Source: a virus
Reading direction: 5' to 3' (one strand)
Length of the DNA stretch: 64,000 bases
IMG/VR virus record: IMGVR_UViG_3300021181_000010
Span: 1-64,000 of that record
The position numbers were made by a program, and so were the translations under genes. Shown here one piece after another: positions 6,546 to 40,564 of this stretch. Position 1 is the stretch's first letter, and every line of letters begins with the position of its first letter. Below the pieces are notes generated by a model that was not told the origin of the DNA, ran no database searches, and saw only the letters and a program-made list of their open reading frames with translations.

Positions 6546-9500
6546 CTAGGAAATGTGTGATACGCCTAAAATTGTCCGAGGCGTCGTGATCTGAATTCTT
6601 GAAACTCCGAGTTGGATCTGCAAATCCGTCGTTCGGATATCTGCACTACCTGCAATGGTCTTCGGTCCAGTTGTCACCTGAAGACGAGCAACACCGCTTT
6701 GTGTCTTGGCGGTTAAGATTGTGATTCTTGCTGTACCACTTTGTGTCTGAGTTGTTGCCGCAGTGATCAACGAGAGACCAATCATAGTTCTCTCATTACC
6801 AGCAATCTGAATACGAGCCTTACCCAACTGTGTCAAGAACTCTGTCTTGTAGATGTCGGCGCTGCCCATGATATTATGAGCGTTATTGGAAACTGTGATT
6901 CTTGTTACGCCGCTTTGAGTTTTGAGCGTCGTATTGCGGATTGCTGTATTTCCGATTTGTGTTCTATCTGTCGTATTGCGAAGGTTTGCCAATCCGGTAA
7001 TGACATGAGGCGTTGTGATCTGAAGACGAGACAAACCAGTAAGGGTCTGTGTTGCTCCATGTTGAATGTTTGCTGCACCAATCTGAGTTTGAACTGTTGT
7101 AACTTGAAGACGAGTCAAACCAGTAATAGTGTGTAATTCAGCACCACGTTGAATACGAGCTACACCATTCTGAGTCTTGAGACGAGTAAGTTTGAGGTAA
7201 GCGCCACCAAGCTGAGTCTGTTGTGTTGTTCTTCTGATTGCAGCGGAACCCTGTTGTGTCTGGGAAACTGTTCCAGCATTGAGGTTAACGCCACGCTCAT
7301 TGAACAATTCAACACTAAGCTGGTTATAAATGGTGTCTAGTTCATAATCAAACAAGGCACGATCATAAAAGAGCGCATAGGCCAAATATCCATCAAAATA
7401 GCCCATTGTCGTCGGACTTGCAGATACTTCGGTCTGACCAAATTTACTTGAACCAAAAGTCGAATTTTTAAACAATGCAGCATTCTGAGCCACCGGAACA
7501 AATTCTACCGAAGGCTGACCAAAATACCATCCATCTGAATTTGTAGTTGGATTGATCGGATAGGTAGAAAATGTCGCCGAAATACTATCTGTCGTCTGAA
7601 GAGTCTGAACCGTTTCGACGTTACCAGTGATAATCCCGTCATTGAAGCGCAAAGCCGCCATGAAGAAGTTTCCACTTCCGATGGATGCTGGTGGGAAATT
7701 AACGGTTTCTTCTACGCCGTCATATCGTGCTCGGAAAGAGACTGCGCCGCCTGTTCTTAGATCGATTGCAAATCCGTTATTACCGGAATCTGGAATCATG
7801 CCAACCAAAGTGGTGTTTTGGCTGACATCATTAGCACTGGCAATGACTACGACAGTGCATTCTTTCAAATTGACAGGAACACCAGTTGCATTTACAATTT
7901 CGCTGTTGGTCGCATTAAGATGGACACCCTGACTTACAAAGGTTCCATCGTTAGACTCAGACAGAATACTTGTACCTAAAGTGCCATCATACGGCTCAGT
8001 ACCGGAATAATTTGGGCTAACATTATAGACGATTTGCGGATTGATACCTTCCAAAAACGAATAGATGACTTGATTTCCAACGGCTGGAATGGATTGTTGG
8101 TTATTAGTGATCAACAACGAACTGTCTATACAAATGTTCGAGCGAATGCTACGTGGGTCAGTGAGCACGTCGCCAATCACAAGATTTGCGAACATACTTA
8201 ACTGTGTATTACCATAACCACCAAGACTTCCGGCCCAGTAATTTTGATTTGGCGATGGGTAAGTCTCGTTGAATCCTTCGTAAGGAGGGAATCCTATGAA
8301 ACGAAATTGAGAAAGCGTACCAAGATTCGGACCAAGAACACCAACTTCAGTGAGTGAGTTACCATTTGTGATCACCACGTAGGCGTCTGCATTGATCTTC
8401 GTGCGGCGTTCTGGGAAATTGATGATCGAGCCAATGACTACGTTCTGAAAATTACTGATTTGCGTATTACCAGGACCATTAGTGCTCCAGTAGTTTTGGT
8501 TCGGAAATGGATAAATCCGATTGAACGTATAGTTTGGTGGGAATGCATAGAACTTCATTGCATCCAAATCTTTGTTTCGAGCACCTACCACACAAGGAGT
8601 CAGAGTGTTGAATTGCAGCGTGAACGTATTGTCTACTTCAAGGGATAGATCAAAAAATTTAACTCCAATAAGAAGAGTAAAGACACGAACAAGCTCCAAA
8701 AAATTGGTTTCTGGCTCATTGAACGAAACAACGGTTCCGAACATTTTAAGCCCAGCCGGATGCAACAACGTTTTTACGATGTCACGGTACTTGTCGATAG
8801 TCTCACCAACTCGCAAGTCATATGAAAAATCTTGCCAGTAAAACGAATCTTGAATGATCTTATTTGAGCTTGCAAAGCTGTCCGTTGTGGTCGGTGCATC
8901 TCCAATTCCACCTGCTTTGCCCGGAAGCCACATTCCTGCGGTATTAGCAGTAATTCCCAACATCGGAGGTAAGACTGCGCCGGAACCTTCTGCTGTATGA
9001 ATGGTCACCGTTGGATTGGTCAAGAAACCCAAACCAAAATTTGTAATTGCAATCGATTGAATTCCGCCCTTTACGTGAGTGATCGAATATTCAGTAGTGC
9101 CATCCGGGATTACCGTCCAGGCCGTAGCGACCGTAGCTACCTTAGTTGTGCCATTGTACGAGACGATTGTATTGCGTTGGCCTTGACCTGTGCCGCCAAT
9201 CAAATCGATTTCATCGCCTGCAAAAAAATTGTCTTGAGTAGGTGAATTGGCCGACAACAAAATTTGTGTTGCGTTTAAAAGATCACCACTGGAAAAATCT
9301 GAGTGTACATCCGAAAAATAATAAAGACCAGGGATACAAACACCATCCGTCTGTGGATCGGGATTTGTGTTCACAGTATCATCTGGACCAAAATATGGTT
9401 CCAAATAAAATGTCGTCGGAGGAGGCTGGCAACCACCGACATAGATCGTCTGAAAAATTGACGTAATGACAGCCGTCGCCGGGGCCAGTTCTCCACCACC

Positions 9501-13632: not shown

Positions 13633-15225
13633 TCAACAATCGCTTTGGTTTGGACAGGTCGTCGGATTCACATCAGGCTGCGTTTCCTTCACCGGCTCTG
13701 GACCAGTTTCGTTTCTGGTTTCGATGATGCCAGTCGGGTCCGGGAAGGGAGGAATGACCGGCGCTGAAGGCGATCCAGGAGAAGATGGACTGCTCGGACT
13801 GTGTGGCGAACCTGGATGCGGACTACCAGATGGAGTCACAATTGCATTTGCTAACCACGTCCATCCACCAGCACCACCAACAATAGCCGAAGCGGTCACA
13901 CCAAACTGACCTCCCGCCGAAGATTCAATTTCACCATCGGCATTCATTTCAATCGTAGCGGCGCTTTCAGAATAGGAACCACCGATTTTCACATCGTAAC
14001 TGCCGCCAGCACTCAACGAATCAGAATCACCAATGTTCGTCGTTCTGGAATCGCCAATGTGCAACGTCTCTCCGTTACCAATTTTTGTAGTTCGACCATC
14101 ACCAATATTCACGGTCTCCCCGTTGCCGATATTTGTGGTCCGTCCTTCGCCCACGTCCAATTCTTCCGATTCAGCAATTCGGACGATACGCTTTCCACCG
14201 ATATCAGTAAAATAATCACCACCGATCTTCTCAGTATAGTCGCCCTGGACATGGACATTCATATCACCATCGGCTTGAACATTGATGGTATCTTGGCAAT
14301 AAAAATTCACTTCACCACGTACTGTGACGTTCAGCGTATTTTGGTGCTGGATGTATGAATTCTCCATGTGAATTTCAAAAGTCTTCCCGACGATCTTCAT
14401 TCCAAAATCGCCACTCAGACCAGGATTGTCTTCTTGTCCAGTTCCAATTTCGATGTACGTACCAGAACGATGATAGATGTGAATTCGTTCGGCATTCGGT
14501 GTATCGTCAACTTCCAAAATATGACCAGACTCCGATTCATAGACGTGATTGTACGGATAAGCAGAGTCGTACCCCGGCAATGGTTCGTTGAATTGTCGGC
14601 CAGGAGTCGTATGAGCAAATGCAATAGGAACACCAACTGCACGCTGTCTCTGTCGAACGCCAATGATCGTATCGCTAATATTTTCTGCTCGGGCGAGACG
14701 GTTCACATCCGATTCGCCAATGATGCAACCCCAAGGATGAGTTTGGCGGGGATACAACGATGCCTGTGACTCGTTTGTGTTCTGTGCGCCGGTTCCGTCA
14801 TTCGGATAATAACGAATACGAGTCTTCCTTGGTGCATTTTGAAGATCGTGGAATGGTGTGGACGGATCGTAGAACCCAATGCAAGGTTGTGGCTGCTCTT
14901 CGGGAATGCCAGCAATGGTTCCAAGCACGACTGGATCTTGAGCACTTTCATTATCTTTGAAAAATCCCCAGACCCATGTTCCTTCTGCTGGTCCTGTCGG
15001 AGAGTGACCAAGGCCATTCATTGCCTGATTCCAAGTAATTGGCTGATAGACGTAAGCCCATTGCAATTCGCACGTCGGAATCAACTGCTTGTTTTCTGTA
15101 TGTGCTCCCAAAATGCGAACACGTAGCCGACCCAACATAACTGGATCATTACGATCTTCGACAACTCCCATCCACCAGTAGAAGGAGTCTTTGCCCATAA
15201 AATTCGGCTCTATCTTCATGCACAT
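13633..15225 (-). CDS. Baseplate hub / central spike protein, gp5-like (VgrG-like OB-fold N-domain plus beta-helix repeats)
   Basis: FYWWMGVVEDRNDPVMLGRLRVRILGAH is the classic gp5/phage_base_V N-terminal motif; C-terminal VGEGRTTNIGNGETVNIGDGRTTKIGNGETLHIGDSRTTNIGD triplicated beta-helix repeats; unusual Pro/Ser-rich tail ending in Cys. Confidence 0.7.
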   Translation of the reverse strand: MCMKIEPNFMGKDSFYWWMGVVEDRNDPVMLGRLRVRILGAHTENKQLIPTCELQWAYVYQPITWNQAMNGLGHSPTGPAEGTWVWGFFKDNESAQDPVVLGTIAGIPEEQPQPCIGFYDPSTPFHDLQNAPRKTRIRYYPNDGTGAQNTNESQASLYPRQTHPWGCIIGESDVNRLARAENISDTIIGVRQRQRAVGVPIAFAHTTPGRQFNEPLPGYDSAYPYNHVYESESGHILEVDDTPNAERIHIYHRSGTYIEIGTGQEDNPGLSGDFGMKIVGKTFEIHMENSYIQHQNTLNVTVRGEVNFYCQDTINVQADGDMNVHVQGDYTEKIGGDYFTDIGGKRIVRIAESEELDVGEGRTTNIGNGETVNIGDGRTTKIGNGETLHIGDSRTTNIGDSDSLSAGGSYDVKIGGSYSESAATIEMNADGEIESSAGGQFGVTASAIVGGAGGWTWLANAIVTPSGSPHPGSPHSPSSPSSPGSPSAPVIPPFPDPTGIIETRNETGPEPVKETQPDVNPTTCPNQSDC

Positions 15226-15230
15226 ATATA

Positions 15231-15779
15231 GTGGTGATGCTTTACTACGTTTACGCTTACTACGATCCTATTACCAATTTGCCGTTCTACATCGGCAAAG
15301 GTCACGGCGCACGAGCGCACTCTCATTTGAGCGAATTAAAAACTACTACCAAAAACATTCGGAAATGGAACAAAATCAATTCTATCAGAAAACACGGCCA
15401 CGAACCTGAAGTAAGAATATTGAAAACTGATCTTACTGAAGACGCTGCATACGACCTTGAAGAAAAACTCATCCGTACCTGGGGTCGGAAACGAATTGAT
15501 CAGAATGGTGTGCTAACTAACATCTGCCTTGATGCTCGTCCACCAGGAAATCCTACAGCACATCTAGGAAAAAAACATTCGACGGCGACTAAGAAAGTAA
15601 TGGCAGAACGCAAAGCAAAAGATTGGCGCATCACTTCACCAGATGGCGTAGTGGAGACTATTACAAATCTTCGAGAATTTTGTCGTTCTCGACAATTGAA
15701 TCAGTCAACACTCGTCAAAATTGCTCACGGCCAGCAACAGAAATCCCACAAAGGATACTACTGCGAATTGGTCACGTAG
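15231..15779 (+). CDS. GIY-YIG homing endonuclease
   Basis: YVYAYYDPITNLPFYIGKGHGARAHSHL = GIY...YIG motif with downstream catalytic Arg/His; basic C-terminal DNA-binding region; plus-strand insertion between minus-strand structural genes. Confidence 0.75.
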   Translation: MVMLYYVYAYYDPITNLPFYIGKGHGARAHSHLSELKTTTKNIRKWNKINSIRKHGHEPEVRILKTDLTEDAAYDLEEKLIRTWGRKRIDQNGVLTNICLDARPPGNPTAHLGKKHSTATKKVMAERKAKDWRITSPDGVVETITNLREFCRSRQLNQSTLVKIAHGQQQKSHKGYYCELVT

Positions 15780-15858
15780 GATATCATCTCACTTTCATTT
15801 AGACCATACAATTTTGAAGAACTTGACGAAAGATGCATCTTTGTGCTAGGGTCAGTTC

Positions 15859-16206
15859 ATGGACTTTCAAATTGAATTTCATGAAGCACCAAACGGAGAC
15901 CTTTTGTTGTCGGTCGATTCCAAAACACAAATGATGCTTCAGGTGATCAAAGGTATCGATCCAATTGCGTTCGCCACCAGCGTTACTCAATTTGACATCT
16001 TCGGTTGGTTCATTACAAATACTGAATATTCCTGGATTACACCGGAAGAGATCGACGCCTTTACCGATGCTCCGATTCTTGGTATCAAAGGATCGAACGA
16101 ATATGGCGATGTTATCCGGGCCTGGGCGTTCATGGATTTTGAATCACGGTCACCCCAAGATGATTTGGCCGATAAAGGCCGGGTTCGATTTACTGGAAAC
16201 GACTAA
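15859..16206 (+). CDS. Hypothetical protein
   Basis: 115-aa plus-strand ORF preceded by a palindrome 'AAGATGCATCTT' next to a TTGACG -35-like box. Confidence 0.4.
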   Translation: MDFQIEFHEAPNGDLLLSVDSKTQMMLQVIKGIDPIAFATSVTQFDIFGWFITNTEYSWITPEEIDAFTDAPILGIKGSNEYGDVIRAWAFMDFESRSPQDDLADKGRVRFTGND

Positions 16207-16250
16207 TTTAGATACATCTATTGACATTCGCACTCGATCCTGCTACTATG
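16207..16250 (+). promoter_or_regulatory. Sigma70-like promoter with conserved upstream inverted repeat (TTTAGATACATCTATTGACA -17 bp- TACTAT)
   Basis: TTGACA, 17-nt spacer, TACTAT; the element TAGATACATCTATTGAC recurs at 16716 and 63851. Confidence 0.55.
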
Positions 16251-16255
16251 GATTC

Positions 16256-16408
16256 ATGAGCAACGAACTAGACGATCTGATCCGGTTGAGTCCTGAAGAA
16301 GTCTACGGCGCAGAGCCAACCGAACTCGAAAAGGCCGAAATGTTCAATGCCGCAGAAGACATTCGCATCGAGCGCTACATGATTGAACGTCACCTGGGAG
16401 GCAAGTAA
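16256..16408 (+). CDS. Small hypothetical protein (51 aa)
   Basis: ATG just after promoter motif; translation MSNELDDLIRLSPEEVYGAEPTELEKAEMFNAAEDIRIERYMIERHLGGK; stop overlaps downstream RBS GGAGG. Confidence 0.35.
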   Translation: MSNELDDLIRLSPEEVYGAEPTELEKAEMFNAAEDIRIERYMIERHLGGK

Positions 16409-16714
16409 ATGCCAACCAAACACAAGCCTGACACCACGATTCCCTGCAACATCTGCAAAGGAACAAAGCGCAACGGCAACCATGAATGCGGGGCCTGCTT
16501 TGGCACTGGTCTTTCGACGGCATCTTACGATCAGCGCCGAAACGCCACCACGATTACGGTATGGGAAGGCGAAAAAATGCCCGATATGGAAGGGCTGGAA
16601 GTTCATTCTCGACGGGCAACCAATCGTACAAATGGCTCGACTGTGATGCCCAAAATTCAACACGGCGTCATCATGCTCATCTCCTGGACGAATAAGGATT
16701 ATCGAGGCGAATAA
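16409..16714 (+). CDS. Small Cys-rich zinc-ribbon protein
   Basis: CNICKGTKRNGNHECGACFGTG: four Cys in CxxC...CxxC arrangement; GGAGG RBS 8 nt upstream. Confidence 0.5.
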   Translation: MPTKHKPDTTIPCNICKGTKRNGNHECGACFGTGLSTASYDQRRNATTITVWEGEKMPDMEGLEVHSRRATNRTNGSTVMPKIQHGVIMLISWTNKDYRGE

Positions 16715-16715
16715 T

Positions 16716-16760
16716 TTAGATACATCTATTGACTTAAAGACCTGAAACTGGTATTCTTAA
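16716..16760 (+). promoter_or_regulatory. Second copy of the TAGATACATCTATTGAC promoter element (TTGACT -17- TATTCT)
   Basis: Same 17-mer as at 16207 followed by -10-like hexamer; precedes ORF 16764. Confidence 0.5.
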
Positions 16761-16763
16761 CTC

Positions 16764-17129
16764 ATGAACAGCGCACAACGAGATTGGATGATTCGGATGG
16801 AAGCGAATGTCGGAACGCTACGAGAACAGTATCACGGTGCCTCAGCATTTGATAATGAACTTCTCGCCGAAACGCTTCGCAAGGTTCGTGAAGCTGTGCG
16901 CCGCCTGAAGCTGAAAGTGGTCGATGAGGTACAAAATGCCATCGATAACGAATTCTGGGACGGCGAGGCCGATTCTCGTGTCGAATGGCTGGCCGAAGCT
17001 CTTCGCATCATCAGCATCTACACTGCGGAGCCGGATGACGACGGATTCAACGAAGAAGTAGAGTACGAACAGGAAATGGATCGCCGGTATCATTTACTTC
17101 ATGGCGGCGACCCGGAGTGGGCACAATGA
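16764..17129 (+). CDS. Hypothetical protein
   Basis: 121-aa acidic ORF, first gene of a three-gene plus-strand cassette. Confidence 0.45.
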   Translation: MNSAQRDWMIRMEANVGTLREQYHGASAFDNELLAETLRKVREAVRRLKLKVVDEVQNAIDNEFWDGEADSRVEWLAEALRIISIYTAEPDDDGFNEEVEYEQEMDRRYHLLHGGDPEWAQ

Positions 17130-17356
17130 CGGAACAAGAAACAGCCTTTGTCGAAATGGTCTCCAAGCACGATTTGACCTTCGACTACTCAGACGACTTT
17201 CGATGCTGGAAAGCTGGCAATGCTTCTCTGGCGGCGATCCACGAAGCTGCAAAATCGCTTCCTCGTGATTTCGTTGTTGAAACGTGGAATGCTGCCGTAG
17301 ACAAGAAGATCGTCCCCGGTCGGCGTGAACAGTGGTATTGGAAGGAAACAGTATGA
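17117..17356 (+). CDS. Hypothetical protein
   Basis: 79-aa ORF, start overlaps stop of upstream gene (translational coupling). Confidence 0.4.
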   Translation: MGTMTEQETAFVEMVSKHDLTFDYSDDFRCWKAGNASLAAIHEAAKSLPRDFVVETWNAAVDKKIVPGRREQWYWKETV

Positions 17357-17643
17357 AAGCAATTCGATGTGACAGTGGAAACCCTTTTGAAGTCCTGCGG
17401 TCGTTTGTGACGAAAAATCCAGACTTCTTGCCGGTCTCGATGATCATGGACATTGGTTATGCTTCGACGCTGGTGACGATCAACAAACTAGAAGACATAG
17501 ACGGGATTGAGGCGTTTCAACAAAAAATGCGTGAGACCGATCCAGTCAGAGATGCGCTGGGAATGGCGATGAAAGCGAGCCAGCCGAATACCGTGTACTC
17601 TTCCGATTTGAAACTCTTGGTGAAGAACGGGAAGTTCGTATGA
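17332..17643 (+). CDS. Hypothetical protein
   Basis: 103-aa ORF overlapping upstream gene by 25 nt. Confidence 0.4.
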   Translation: MVLEGNSMKAIRCDSGNPFEVLRSFVTKNPDFLPVSMIMDIGYASTLVTINKLEDIDGIEAFQQKMRETDPVRDALGMAMKASQPNTVYSSDLKLLVKNGKFV

Positions 17644-17748
17644 CCTGTTCCAAAAACTTCAAGAAGGTGCGTTGGTCGAACGTATTTGTTGACACAAGAC
17701 CTCGGCCTACCTGTGTACGTATTGATCGGTGTCGCCGCAGGATACGTT

Positions 17749-18345
17749 CTAATCGAATTTCTTGATCGTTAAAGGCGGATCGGACGCAGCAAGAGGCATT
17801 GTCTGCCAGCTACCATTCGCATTTGTAATCATCAGAGGCGTAGCCGGAATGTTCACATAAGGTCCCAACTTCGTTCCATCGGCAAGCACAAGCTGGATCA
17901 TCTGAAGACCGGCGCAATTCCATCCCAGAGGGCCATCCACAATCGTAACCGTCAAAACATCGCCGACAGTATACCCAGATGCAAACGGCGCAGCCAACCC
18001 AGTTATGACCCCATTCGTGAAATAAACTGTGATGCTTCCTGCTGTACCAGTCCCGCCCGTAATCGTTATTTGTGGATTGACGTAGCTGGAGCCGCCCGAA
18101 CCGACAACCAGGGTCAACACTGAAGCAGACACCACCGACGCCGTAGCGCTCGCCCCAGTGCCAGCAGCAGGCTTTGTAACGCCACTTCCAACACACTGCC
18201 ACCGTTGGACAGAAGCGATTGGCGAAACCATCAAATTTTTGACTTGTGATTGTCCGTCAGCCAACGTTTGTGCATTGCTTTGCTGAATGATGAGAACGAT
18301 TAATGCAAGAAAAAGAATCAACCATACAACTCTAAGTGTTTTCAT
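17749..18345 (-). CDS. Secreted protein with N-terminal signal peptide, paralog A
   Basis: MKTLRVVWLILFLALIVLIIQQSNAQ signal peptide (start taken at internal Met); C-terminal ITGGTGTAGSITVYFTNGVITGLAAPFASGYTVGDVLTVTIVDGPLGW domain shared with next gene. Confidence 0.55.
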   Translation of the reverse strand: MKTLRVVWLILFLALIVLIIQQSNAQTLADGQSQVKNLMVSPIASVQRWQCVGSGVTKPAAGTGASATASVVSASVLTLVVGSGGSSYVNPQITITGGTGTAGSITVYFTNGVITGLAAPFASGYTVGDVLTVTIVDGPLGWNCAGLQMIQLVLADGTKLGPYVNIPATPLMITNANGSWQTMPLAASDPPLTIKKFD

Positions 18346-18355
18346 GTCGTCTTTC

Positions 18356-19228
18356 CTAATAGAGATAAGCAACTGTGATGTAATCGTCCAAATTCCACGC
18401 TACAAGCGCCCCAGAAGCATCTTGATAGAGAACTGGGATAATGTAGCCAGTCGTCGTATTGAGCGTATAGTCGGGACCGAGACGCTGTAGAAGGCCATTC
18501 CGCCAGACCTGGACGTTGCGCCCCGGCTTCGGATACTTCCATGTCTGTGGAATGTCCGTGATCGTTACTGTCAGAACGTCGCCAATCGTGTAGCCAGTGG
18601 CATTGGGTGCATTAATCGCTGTGATGACCCCTCCAACGACAGTAGCAGTGACATTCCCAGGAGTGCCGGTGCCGCCAGTGATCGAGACCATCGGTAAAAC
18701 GTAGCCACTTCCACCGCTGACACTTGTGAACGACAATGACGTGAGTGTTGTTGTTCCAGGCGGATTAAAAACAACTCCCTGGAAAACGGCACCTGTCCCA
18801 AATGGACCGTTATTGACAACAGCAATTTGATTCACATACTGTGTCGGAAAAATCCCACGAAGCTGACCCCCAGAACATGCAGGCGAACATGATGCACCTG
18901 ATGCAAATTCAATCCAGACACCTAGTGGAAAGGTCTGAACAGTGCCATCACTCATGAGCACTTGAACACCAACTGGAGTAGGAGCAGCACCACCAACAAC
19001 TGCCCGAGACACTTTGTTCTCAAACATTCGCATGAACCAATTTGGTTTTTGAACCTTGGCCGGTGCTGGCGGTGCGATTGGCGGCGGCGGTTCTTCAGAC
19101 GCAGCGACCACTAAGGGAAAGGGCGCTGTAATATTGCTTTTTTGTTTTGTCTGTTGTGCGCTCAGTGTAAGCGAAAGAATGGTCGCTGTGAGTCCTGTTG
19201 CTCGAAGTATGACTTTCATCAAAGACAT
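18356..19228 (-). CDS. Secreted protein with signal peptide and Pro-rich linker, paralog B
   Basis: MKVILRATGLTATILSLTLSAQQ signal peptide, PPPPIAPPAP linker, C-terminal ITGGTGTPGNVTATVVGGVITAINAPNATGYTIGDVLTVTITDIPQTW domain homologous to paralog A. Confidence 0.55.
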   Translation of the reverse strand: MSLMKVILRATGLTATILSLTLSAQQTKQKSNITAPFPLVVAASEEPPPPIAPPAPAKVQKPNWFMRMFENKVSRAVVGGAAPTPVGVQVLMSDGTVQTFPLGVWIEFASGASCSPACSGGQLRGIFPTQYVNQIAVVNNGPFGTGAVFQGVVFNPPGTTTLTSLSFTSVSGGSGYVLPMVSITGGTGTPGNVTATVVGGVITAINAPNATGYTIGDVLTVTITDIPQTWKYPKPGRNVQVWRNGLLQRLGPDYTLNTTTGYIIPVLYQDASGALVAWNLDDYITVAYLY

Positions 19229-19686
19229 TTAGTTCGTTCCTTTTCTGATGGCAAGGATTCCCGATTCTCCACCTTGCATTTCCCGCTGAGAGATTTTACC
19301 CCTACTGGCCAACTCTTGACGGAGTGACATTAAGCTGCGGACGTGCTAATTTGTGGATCGTTTCTTACGCCCTGTGGATTCATGTATTATCCCACAGTCC
19401 GTGCCGAGTCAAGCTCGATCTTTGCACCACATCAGGCTTTCATCTTCGCATAGAGTGGGTTAAGGTGTCAAGGCTATATACTGCCATGAAAAACCATCAT
19501 CACCAAACAATGCAACTCAGAGTATGGCTGGAGAAAATTCTAGGACCAACCGCAAGGGTTTCTGAATGCTCGGATCGTCGAGTAAGAGAACGGGCCTGGA
19601 CAGTCAAGAATTTTTATGGCAGTTCGATCTTGGAAAAATGGGGATACCCGCTTCCATTTGACGAACCGATTTTGAATTAGAAATTT

Positions 19687-19761
19687 TGGAGCGAAGAGTG
19701 GGAGTCGAACCCACCTACACTTGATTGGCAACCAAGGGCACAGCCGCTATACCATCCTCGC
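19687..19761 (-). tRNA. tRNA-Gly (anticodon GCC)
   Basis: Manual fold: acceptor GCGAGGA/TCTTCGC, T-arm GTGGGTTCGACTCCCAC, anticodon stem CTTGG/TCAAG with loop TTGCCAA, encoded CCA. Confidence 0.75.
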
Positions 19762-40024: not shown

Positions 40025-40564
40025 TCACGATTGTTTGACAGGCGCAATCAGAGCGACAGCGAGTTTGCCATCTTGACGTGGAATCGATTCAGGCTTTCCA
40101 AATGGCTCCAGGTCGGCAATGAGACGTTTGAGAAGATCGTATCCAATGTTGGTATGAGCGATCTCTCGGCCACGGAACTGAACGACGGCTCGGACTTTGT
40201 TGCCGTCTTTCAGGAATTCAATTGCATGTTTCTTTTTGAAATCGTAATCGTGATCGTCAGTGTTTGGCCGGAACTTCAGTTCTTTGATGACGGTGACGTG
40301 TTGGTGACGCTTTGCTTCTTGTTTTTTCTTTTTCTCTTCAAACAAATACTTACCGTGGTCCATAACTTTGGCGACGGGCGGCTTGGCAGTTGGAGAAATG
40401 CAGATGAGATCAAGGTTGAGTGCTCTGGCTCGTTGGATTGCTTGATTGGTTGGAAGGATGACGTTGGAGCCATCTGGGAAGATTGTCCGAACTTCAGGAA
40501 ACCGGATACCTTCGTTTACGTTATCTTTGATTTTTGGTCGTGGGGTTCTTGGTTGATATGCCAT
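40025..40564 (-). CDS. infC: Translation initiation factor IF-3 homolog
   Basis: 179 aa; VNEGIRFPEVRTIFPDGSNV...ALNLDLICISPTAKPPVAKVMDHGKYLFEEKKKKQEAKRHQHVTVIKELKFRPNTDDHDYDFKKKHAIEFLKDGNKVRAVVQFRGREIAHTNIG follows the conserved IF-3 N-/C-domain sequence pattern. Confidence 0.8.
   Translation of the reverse strand: MAYQPRTPRPKIKDNVNEGIRFPEVRTIFPDGSNVILPTNQAIQRARALNLDLICISPTAKPPVAKVMDHGKYLFEEKKKKQEAKRHQHVTVIKELKFRPNTDDHDYDFKKKHAIEFLKDGNKVRAVVQFRGREIAHTNIGYDLLKRLIADLEPFGKPESIPRQDGKLAVALIAPVKQS

Follow-up and report, generated by a model that had tools for sequence, protein, structure and literature searches.

A short sequence repeated in front of small genes may be a promoter, an operator, a boundary at which genes are exchanged, or several of these at once, and the locus described here raises the question of which of them applies. 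In positions 1 to 64,000 of the IMG/VR virus record IMGVR_UViG_3300021181_000010 (hereafter the window, 64,000 nucleotides (nt) in length, to which coordinates refer unless another locus is named), near-identical copies of one motif containing an inverted repeat precede cassettes of small plus-strand genes. We found these copies to be part of a fixed module which recurs in related phages and which is, with high confidence, a functional promoter. Taken as a whole, we consider the best explanation to be a lineage-specific, early-type promoter module that has a leaderless start and whose inverted repeat, or dyad, serves as the site of a regulator, a combination which we judge somewhat more probable than its opposite.

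The 16-mer AGATACATCTATTGAC occurs at 16210, 16718 and 63849 and is identical in all three places. A preliminary description of this DNA had reported identical 17-mers at 16209, 16718 and 63853. The first of these positions was correct, while the other two copies start at 16717 and 63848, and a different first base in the third copy means that only two of the 17-mers agree fully: TAGATACATCTATTGAC is found exactly at 16209-16225 and 16717-16733, and the third copy reads AAGATACATCTATTGAC (63848-63864, one mismatch). These copies exceed what base composition would produce. Allowing up to 3 mismatches, the 17-mer has 3 matches in the window against 0.15 expected, a count reached in none of 100 dinucleotide shuffles. 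The core AGATNNATCT is found 5 times (1.1 expected; 0/100 shuffles reach 5), and four of these five copies fall in promoters of the family described below. Likewise, TGNTANNNT-N6-ATG is present 7 times where 2.0 would be expected, and no shuffle out of 100 reached 7.

Read with the A of the ATG as +1, the copies share a fixed architecture. An A-rich tract at -55..-49 is followed by the dyad TAGATACATCTA at -47..-36, centred at -41.5, and then by TTGACW, a spacer of 17-18 nt, TGnTAnnnT, exactly 6 nt ending in a pyrimidine, and the ATG. The promoters of the window, P1 to P3 with this architecture and P0 with the TGnTAnnnT-6-ATG geometry and its palindrome in the spacer, and the genes behind two of them are the following.

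15823 to 15861, plus strand: promoter P0, of a spacer-operator class, with a -35 TTGACG (15823-15828), the perfect palindrome AAAGATGCATCTTT (15829-15842) in an 18-nt spacer, TG (15844-15845), a -10 TAGGGT (15847-15852), the 6 nt CAGTTC and the ATG at 15859, which opens a 115-amino-acid (aa) open reading frame (ORF) at 15859-16206.
16204 to 16258, plus strand: promoter P1, with the stop codon of the upstream gene (16204-16206), the dyad TAGATACATCTA (16209-16220), a -35 TTGACA (16221-16226), a 17-nt spacer, TG (16241-16242), a -10 TACTAT (16244-16249), the 6 nt GGATTC and the ATG at 16256, its predicted +1.
16256 to 16714, plus strand: the genes driven by P1, a 50-aa ORF (16256-16408) and then a 101-aa protein (16409-16714).
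16712 to 16766, plus strand: promoter P2, with the upstream stop codon (16712-16714), the dyad (16717-16728), a -35 TTGACT (16729-16734), TG (16749-16750), a -10 TATTCT (16752-16757), the 6 nt TAACTC and the ATG at 16764.
16764 to 17129, plus strand: a 121-aa ORF, which begins at the predicted +1 of P2.
63848 to 63897, plus strand: promoter P3, with AAGATACATCTA (63848-63859), a -35 TTGACA (63860-63865), TG (63880-63881), a -10 TACGAT (63883-63888), the 6 nt TGGTTC and the ATG at 63895, whose ORF continues past the end of the window.

All four -35 hexamers are close to TTGACA (TTGACA at 16221, TTGACT at 16729, TTGACA at 63860, TTGACG at 15823), the spacers measure 17, 17, 17 and 18 nt, and TGnTAnnnT is found in 4/4. 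The three motif copies and the promoter of the 15859 gene all have their ATG exactly 6 nt past the -10. The -35 boxes, the 17-nt spacing and the hexamers TACTAT, TATTCT and TACGAT had been described beforehand and were confirmed here by reading and by pattern scans; what had been overlooked is the TG of the extended -10 and the placement of the ATG at the predicted transcription start. A palindrome had also been placed next to the TTGACG box of the 15859 gene. It is present (AAGATGCATCTT, 15830-15841), although it lies within the 18-nt spacer rather than merely adjoining the -35, with its core AGATGCATCT at -28..-19. P3 overlaps the 3' end of an ORF at 63418-63882, for which a search for encoding contigs returned no record.

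Comparison with related phages extends these findings beyond the window. A scan of IMG/VR for the exact 16-mer returned 71 loci, about ten of which show the complete architecture (16-mer, 17-18 nt spacer, TGn, TAnnnT, 6 nt, ATG); most of the 71 were discarded as chance matches or as unrelated conserved coding sequence (...GATGGACTAGATACATCTATTGACTGGCG...). Four of the loci collected (L056, L065, L025 and L013) share proteins with the window, their coding DNA being 65-70% identical, and the L013 copy of the 16-mer lacks the promoter architecture. In loci fetched by way of the neighbouring gp5 gene, where the motif was not used in retrieval (L072-L078), the module adjoins gp5 in canonical or variant form, the variants being TGATACATCTA, AAATACATCTA, AGATACACCTA, GGATGTACCTA and AGATGTATCTAc. 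Further promoters came from a metagenome scan with the pattern ATACATCTATTGAC-N18/19-TAnnnT-N6-ATG, which gave 51 loci with 41 distinct promoters. At positions that this pattern leaves free, T is found at -47 in 38/41, G at -45 in 37/41, T at -15 in 34/41 and G at -14 in 39/41, with a pyrimidine at -1 in 40/41 and A at +4 in 27/41. A logo of 33 non-redundant promoters is conserved at -47..-36 (T A G A T A C A T C T A) and A-rich at -55..-49, with nothing further upstream.

The module is also repeated within genomes. A contig that continues the genome of the same phage (L155) carries a fourth canonical copy at the window-equivalent position 64952 and a partial copy at 72999, and a related 321-kb contig has at least seven module copies in the approximately 18 kb sampled. 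Between promoters, spacers and flanks are unrelated while -47..-30 and -15..-7 are conserved, and since the former have diverged, conservation of the latter reflects selection and not recent duplication. The proposal of a sigma70-type promoter family in front of plus-strand small-gene cassettes is thus upheld by comparative conservation (-47..-30 and TGnTAnnnT). Loci L208-L210, obtained in a scan for the spacer type of promoter, proved unrelated and were set aside.

Gene content between the modules varies. The 101-aa protein behind P1 has DnaJ-type CxxCxGxG zinc-finger motifs and its own Shine-Dalgarno sequence (GGGAGG); in the window its gene comes after that of the 50-aa ORF, in L040 it stands behind a promoter of its own, and between the orthologous promoters of L072 it is missing. 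Orthologues of the 121-aa ORF behind P2 are found in L167 (77% aa identity) and L072 (63%), each starting at the same kind of ATG, and in L072 the variant AGATGTATCTAc precedes TTGACA. A related-locus search seeded with the 121-aa protein returned no relatives, the peptide seeds being too strict. The 50-aa ORF belongs to a family of small early proteins with an N-terminal L-x-R-L-SPEEVYGxE / (L/Y)R(L/I)SPEEVYGPE motif and variable C-termini, of which L072, L075, L077, L167 and L170 also have members, usually directly behind a motif promoter; the family has no match in Pfam or PHROG.

The most informative feature of the module is the ATG at the predicted +1. Across 188 kb of family DNA we counted 85 distinct TTGAC-N17-19-TAnnnT sites, in 33 of which an ATG stands at offset 6 after the -10, compared with 0-4 at each of the other offsets from 0 to 24. 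TGnTAnnnT by itself is followed by an ATG at offset 6 in 48 of 425 cases, against 1-14 at other offsets. These ATGs open ORFs of at least 40 codons in 84/89 instances (median 101), whereas the other two frames do so in 24/181, and orthologous N-termini are conserved from the offset-6 ATG onward (e.g. MSNELDDLIRLSPEEVYG vs MSNELEDLIRLAPEEVYG). Sigma70-type promoters initiate 6-8 nt past the -10, and a pyrimidine at -1 followed by a purine at +1 is the usual signature of a transcription start; base -1 is C or T, never a purine, in 64/64 promoters with a 17-nt spacer. Because the ATG is fixed 6 nt after the -10, is preceded by a pyrimidine and opens a reading frame, leaderless mRNAs are predicted, and the 6 nt between -10 and ATG leave no space for a ribosome-binding site. 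We consider it likely that transcription begins at the A of the ATG and that the mRNAs carry no leader. The second gene of the P1 operon (16409), by contrast, has GGGAGG, which implies that the host uses Shine-Dalgarno sequences on internal genes.

Similar geometry is known from bacteria. In Actinobacteria, Deinococcus-Thermus and Acidobacteria, the start codon of leaderless genes is preceded by a TANNNT at a distance of about 6-7 nt (Zheng et al. 2011, PMC3160421). As in those genes, the position of the -10 here makes the predicted transcription start fall on the start codon, which is ATG, and a Shine-Dalgarno sequence is missing. Unlike in those genes, a family of phage promoters is here organised around this arrangement, together with a complete -35, an extended -10 and a dyad upstream. 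The literature that we searched contained no description of leaderless early genes in T4-like or huge phages, and a differential RNA sequencing study of phiKZ did not report them (PMC8244752). Gene prediction in this clade is affected as well. The public gene call after P3 (L155, 11288 vs 11234) lies 18 codons downstream of the predicted leaderless ATG at 63895, while that after the 64952 copy matches the leaderless ATG; leaderless starts of the clade are therefore annotated inconsistently, and gene callers misplace at least one start in this family, that of the gene after 63895.

Two promoters without the dyad also look leaderless: one at 51425-51452 (minus strand), for an ATP-dependent DNA ligase gene (TGgTATAAT, 7 nt, ATG), and one at 20533-20569 (minus strand), for the gene at 20231-20533 (TTGACA-17-TGgTACTAT, 7 nt, ATG). 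Three other candidates were dropped. A promoter at 61002 (minus strand) was rejected as a gene start for having a stop two codons after its ATG, and TTGATA at -47..-42, present in 14/41 variants, was rejected as a second -35 for want of a -10 at the right distance. The reverse-strand CTAAAT in the first two motif copies (16211 and 16719, minus strand) was not retained as a late promoter, as the family does not conserve the neighbouring bases from which it arises.

How would such a module operate? We propose that the housekeeping sigma70/sigmaA-type RNA polymerase of the host would read TTGACW, the 17-18 nt spacer and TGnTAnnnT, and would initiate at the A of the ATG exactly 6 nt past the -10. 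The resulting message, having neither a 5' leader nor a Shine-Dalgarno sequence, would be translated by the leaderless route. The dyad, (T)AGAT-RY-ATCT(A) of 10-12 bp, centred at -41.5, preceded by the A-rich tract and adjoining the -35, would be bound by a small dimeric DNA-binding regulator, encoded by phage or host. From -41.5 this protein would contact RNA polymerase and modulate transcription, most probably by stimulating it, while the same dyad within the spacer (-28..-19, as in P0 at 15823) would repress. The module is probably also a homology patch for the shuffling of cassettes, as PeSL elements are, given that it is nearly identical before successive small ORFans.

That the dyad is the site of a dedicated small dimeric regulator, here a putative one, is a proposition to which we give an even chance. 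It draws on where the dyad is found and how it varies. In the upstream position its arms stay intact while its centre may be AC, GT (AGATGTATCTA, the canonical core in reverse complement) or GC (TAGATGCATCTA). The core AGATGCATCT is also found within the spacer (-28..-19 or -29..-20), in three phages and each time before a different gene (window 15823, L040 1237, L207 3271). AGAT-RY-ATCT thus has its centre at -41.5 in many promoters, and at -23.5 or -24.5 in these three. Two further places in the window hold related sequences.

62343 to 62395, plus strand: a degenerate relative of the module that opens the second plus-strand cassette, with tandem ACATCTA ACATCTA (62343-62355), a -35-like TTGTCA (62358-62363), AGATACATC in the spacer (62367-62375), TGC TAGATA (62379-62387), 5 nt and the ATG at 62393.
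25600 to 25621, no strand assigned: a half-site cluster, GATACATCTAGATTATTAGATG, with ATCTA/TAGAT half-sites and neither TTGAC nor a usable -10.

The degenerate promoter therefore has half-sites both upstream and within its spacer. The cluster had been taken for a degenerate copy of the motif at 25604; since it lacks both boxes, it does not belong among the promoters of this family. A minus-strand promoter, TTGACA-18-TATAGT (-35 at 25571-25566), has the cluster 30-55 nt upstream of it, and at the orthologous position L056 (~8440-8480) likewise has an ATCTA/TAGAT cluster at this distance from the promoter, with its half-sites spaced differently. This conserved minus-strand promoter (25566 region) drives an 862-aa gene. 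The presence of the core inside spacers, together with the clusters that are free of family promoters, favours a dimeric regulator over simple contact with RNA polymerase. The operator shared among these promoters, which the preliminary description had suspected, is plausible and gains some support from the variation at the centre, the two positions within promoters and the promoter-free sites, though no protein that binds it was found.

The placement has precedents in operators that act from two positions. At OR2, near -42, lambda cI activates PRM, and CRP and FNR act at class II sites at -41.5. Short palindromes of 8-12 bp are used by ribbon-helix-helix proteins of the P22 Arc and MetJ type, the met box being AGACGTCT. 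The dyad resembles such systems in its centre at -41.5 abutting the -35, in that the same site in the spacer would repress, and in a length that fits ribbon-helix-helix dimers. It differs in that no cognate protein has been found and the -35 is of consensus type, unlike that of typical activator-dependent promoters; moreover, sites of the CRP family, at 22 bp, are much longer.

Several points weigh against our reading. Searches of Pfam and PHROGs with all cassette proteins of the window and L155 revealed no DNA-binding domain, only GIY-YIG and gp5 families, and no candidate regulator emerged from the part of the genome covered, 75 kb of ~405 kb, in which the sole helix-turn-helix (HTH) match is an HNH homing endonuclease at 47935-48495. 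The half-sites are unequally conserved (T at -39 in 15/33 vs A at -44 in 23/33 in the logo), the arms are only roughly symmetric, and the 33 promoters show neither symmetric co-variation nor compensatory pairs. The register of the dyad relative to the -35 is almost fixed, and the core promoter is near enough to consensus that it would not need an activator. Many of the collected sequences were fetched with patterns containing the motif, so their profiles are biased. The predicted transcription start rests on signatures in the sequence, and the assignment of the host, discussed below, depends on one gene. Finally, the dyad coincides with the proximal subsite of an UP element (-46..-38) and the A-tract with the distal one, such that the C-terminal domain of the alpha subunit of RNA polymerase (alpha-CTD) could be the reader.

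This last point can be developed into an explanation of its own, in which promoter and leaderless start hold, the -47..-36 block is a lineage-specific proximal UP-like subsite read by alpha-CTD, possibly of a subunit modified by the phage as with T4 Alt ADP-ribosylation, and the palindrome is incidental. An UP element is A/T-rich and has two subsites built from A- or T-tracts, distal at -57..-47 and proximal at -46..-38; for the latter the consensus in E. coli is reportedly AAAAAARNR. The block occupies exactly the proximal subsite, the A-rich -55..-49 corresponds to the distal one (A at -54, -52 and -51 in 29-31/41), the register shifts by only 0 or +1 nt, and near-consensus promoters can do without an activator. 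There is also a parallel in T4-like early promoters, which are of sigma70 type, numerous and located before novel ORFs, and whose lineage-specific conserved upstream sequence is thought to contact ADP-ribosylated alpha (Nolan et al. 2006, PMC1524935). Nevertheless, the proximal block is the specific AGATACATC, not an A-tract, and mismatches AAAAAARNR; its 10-bp core is found again at three genes within the spacer, a region not bound by alpha-CTD, and in clusters away from any -35 box; and the alternation of AC, GT and GC at the centre is what recognition of a dyad predicts. We regard recognition by alpha-CTD alone as possible but rather unlikely.

Two further accounts take their model from the PeSL cassettes of RB49 and phi1, in which repeated early promoters with a GC-rich stem-loop terminator and a Shine-Dalgarno sequence mediate the shuffling of ORFans (Arbiol et al. 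2010, PMC2839356). Here, too, repeated early-promoter modules lie between small ORFans in a plastic region, the upstream stop codon falls in their AT-rich part, and the cassettes differ between relatives, as the zinc-finger gene does among the window, L040 and L072. The upstream block might then have no role in transcription and the module be a mobile, recombining cassette boundary like that of a PeSL, kept uniform by recombination or gene conversion. We find this improbable, since recombination within a genome cannot explain an identical 16-mer across contigs with 65-70% coding identity and scrambled spacers, and a patch of 16-17 bp is short for homologous exchange; besides, the role of a boundary is compatible with the other explanations and not an alternative to them. 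Alternatively, the inverted repeat could fold, as RNA or as DNA, into a hairpin by which read-through from upstream is terminated or attenuated in the manner of the PeSL stem-loop, a notion suggested by its location directly behind the stop codons of co-directional genes. However, the stem would have 4-5 AT-rich pairs and a loop of 2-4 nt with no U-tract after it. Folding of the region was not significant (z -1.07 to +1.05), the three motif promoters folding no better than shuffled sequence (z = 0.01, 1.05 and 0.63), a terminator scan at the motif promoters found no GC-rich hairpin with U-tract, and Rfam identified only tRNAs in the window. The hairpin is effectively refuted by folding and retains next to no probability; the module is not an RNA element or terminator. 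Nor do we file it as a PeSL, because the two defining features fail: it has no stable (usually GGGG...CCCC) GC-rich stem-loop or terminator, and no Shine-Dalgarno sequence at its 3' end. Its inverted repeat is instead an AT-rich 5+2+5 dyad at -41.5, to which a predicted leaderless start is added, and recombination, a property of PeSLs, is putative here.

Of known systems, the early promoters of T4 type and the PeSL cassettes come closest to the regulated, leaderless promoter module that we favour. In the former as in the module, a T4-like phage has many near-consensus sigma70-type promoters before small novel ORFs, with TG before a -10 TAnnnT and a conserved sequence plus A-rich tract upstream of the -35. 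The differences lie in the -35 (TTGACW here, GTTTAC in T4), in -47..-36, which is a specific near-palindrome here as opposed to an A-rich stretch, and in the ATG, which here stands at the predicted +1 without leader or Shine-Dalgarno sequence.

The phage itself was placed by its neighbouring genes and by contig matches. To the left of the cassette, minus-strand genes encode a gp5-like baseplate hub of the T4 type (13633-15225) as well as gp6-like and wedge-like baseplate proteins, the wedge protein having ~40% identity to the nearest cultured phages (Melnitz, HTVC008M and cyanomyoviruses). At the nucleotide level, megablast of 14000-20000 against INPHARED phages gave no match. A protein identical to the translation initiation factor IF3 of the window is present on a contig of 405,631 bp, and a contig of 404,282 bp in ENA is 99.98% identical to the window across an overlap of 11.3 kb. 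On account of the baseplate genes, the cultured relatives at ~40% and the 404-405-kb contig matches, the window is, as judged from these comparisons, part of a huge, distant T4-like myophage of ~405 kb.

IF3 also gives a pointer, though a weak one from a single gene, to the host. The phage encodes a full-length IF3 (IF3_N + IF3_C; 40025-40564, minus strand), and its closest homologues among cellular proteins (62-63% identity) carry the labels Bryobacterales, Bryobacteraceae or Acidobacteriota, which suggests that the host is probably an Acidobacteriota bacterium. IF3 reportedly antagonises the translation of leaderless mRNA in E. coli. Among genome contigs, a gp5 search found three distant matches to metagenome-assembled genomes only, with no clue to the host, and a scan for the motif with the promoter pattern found 0 matches. 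The leaderless reading fits an acidobacterial host: in all three Acidobacteria genomes analysed by Zheng et al. (PMC3160421), 9.7-19.4% of genes were predicted to be leaderless.

Two other arrangements in the window bring start codons close to a predicted 5' end, and add to the interest of the module, as does the IF3 of the phage. A late-promoter-like CTAAAT(A) (compare T4 TATAAATA) precedes structural and other genes, at 62650 and, on the minus strand, at 48507, 44492, 27176, 38605, 40581, 6541 and 4939. It is found 5-6 nt before start codons; the distance is exactly 6 nt in at least five cases, and at the level of the family CTAAAT is followed by an ATG at offset 6 in 8/85 sites compared with 0-4 at other offsets. 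Given this spacing, late transcripts may also be leaderless. The second arrangement concerns the tRNA genes, 24 in number (19687-53054, minus strand), nearly all of which encode a terminal CCA with AAATTT(T) after it. In 7/24, the ATG of an ORF of 25-72 codons begins 5-6 nt past the CCA (e.g. 26627, 28321, 30612, 30919, 47850 and 52518), so that 3' processing of the tRNA would leave a leader of at most 6 nt ('tRNA punctuation'). A consensus TTGACA-16-TATAAT promoter (28117-28147, minus strand) ends only 2 nt short of the annotated 5' terminus of tRNA-Ser(gga), which puts its predicted start inside the tRNA.

These elements can be combined into a joint reading, which in its entirety we hold to be unlikely. 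It would have a clade of T4-like phages of ~320-405 kb, probably on Acidobacteriota, in which much of expression proceeds via leaderless or near-leaderless mRNAs, produced from sigma70-type early promoters, from CTAAAT(A) late-type promoters and by excision of ATG-abutting tRNAs. One small dimeric regulator would act on AGAT-RY-ATCT, activating at -41.5 and repressing at -23.5, and the balance of leaderless against leadered translation would be adjusted by the phage IF3.

The module is a precise and testable signature of transcription and translation starts in uncultivated huge soil phages, and its dyad is a simple handle for finding a regulator of early transcription in huge phages. If the predicted starts are right, this would be a T4-like phage whose early genes are translated leaderless; together with its own IF3 and the tRNA-abutting ORFs, it would make phage takeover versus the leaderless translation route directly testable.

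Several other genes of the window merit mention. A GIY-YIG homing-endonuclease-like gene (15237-15779, plus strand) lies between gp5 and the first motif cassette, and the HTH+HNH homing-endonuclease-like gene (47935-48495, minus strand) lies in the tRNA region, with CTAAATaggattATG upstream. On the minus strand are found an ABC-transporter ATPase (53851-54690), a binding-protein-dependent permease (55544-56404) and an OmpA-domain protein of ~614-620 aa (56830-58692). Pfam further identified major-vault-protein-like domains (MVP shoulder and Vault_3) among the window proteins, which we attribute by size to the 862-aa protein (22906-25494, minus strand), whose sole relatives in phage databases, at 37-39% aa identity, are in uncultured megaphage records of 462-735 kb.

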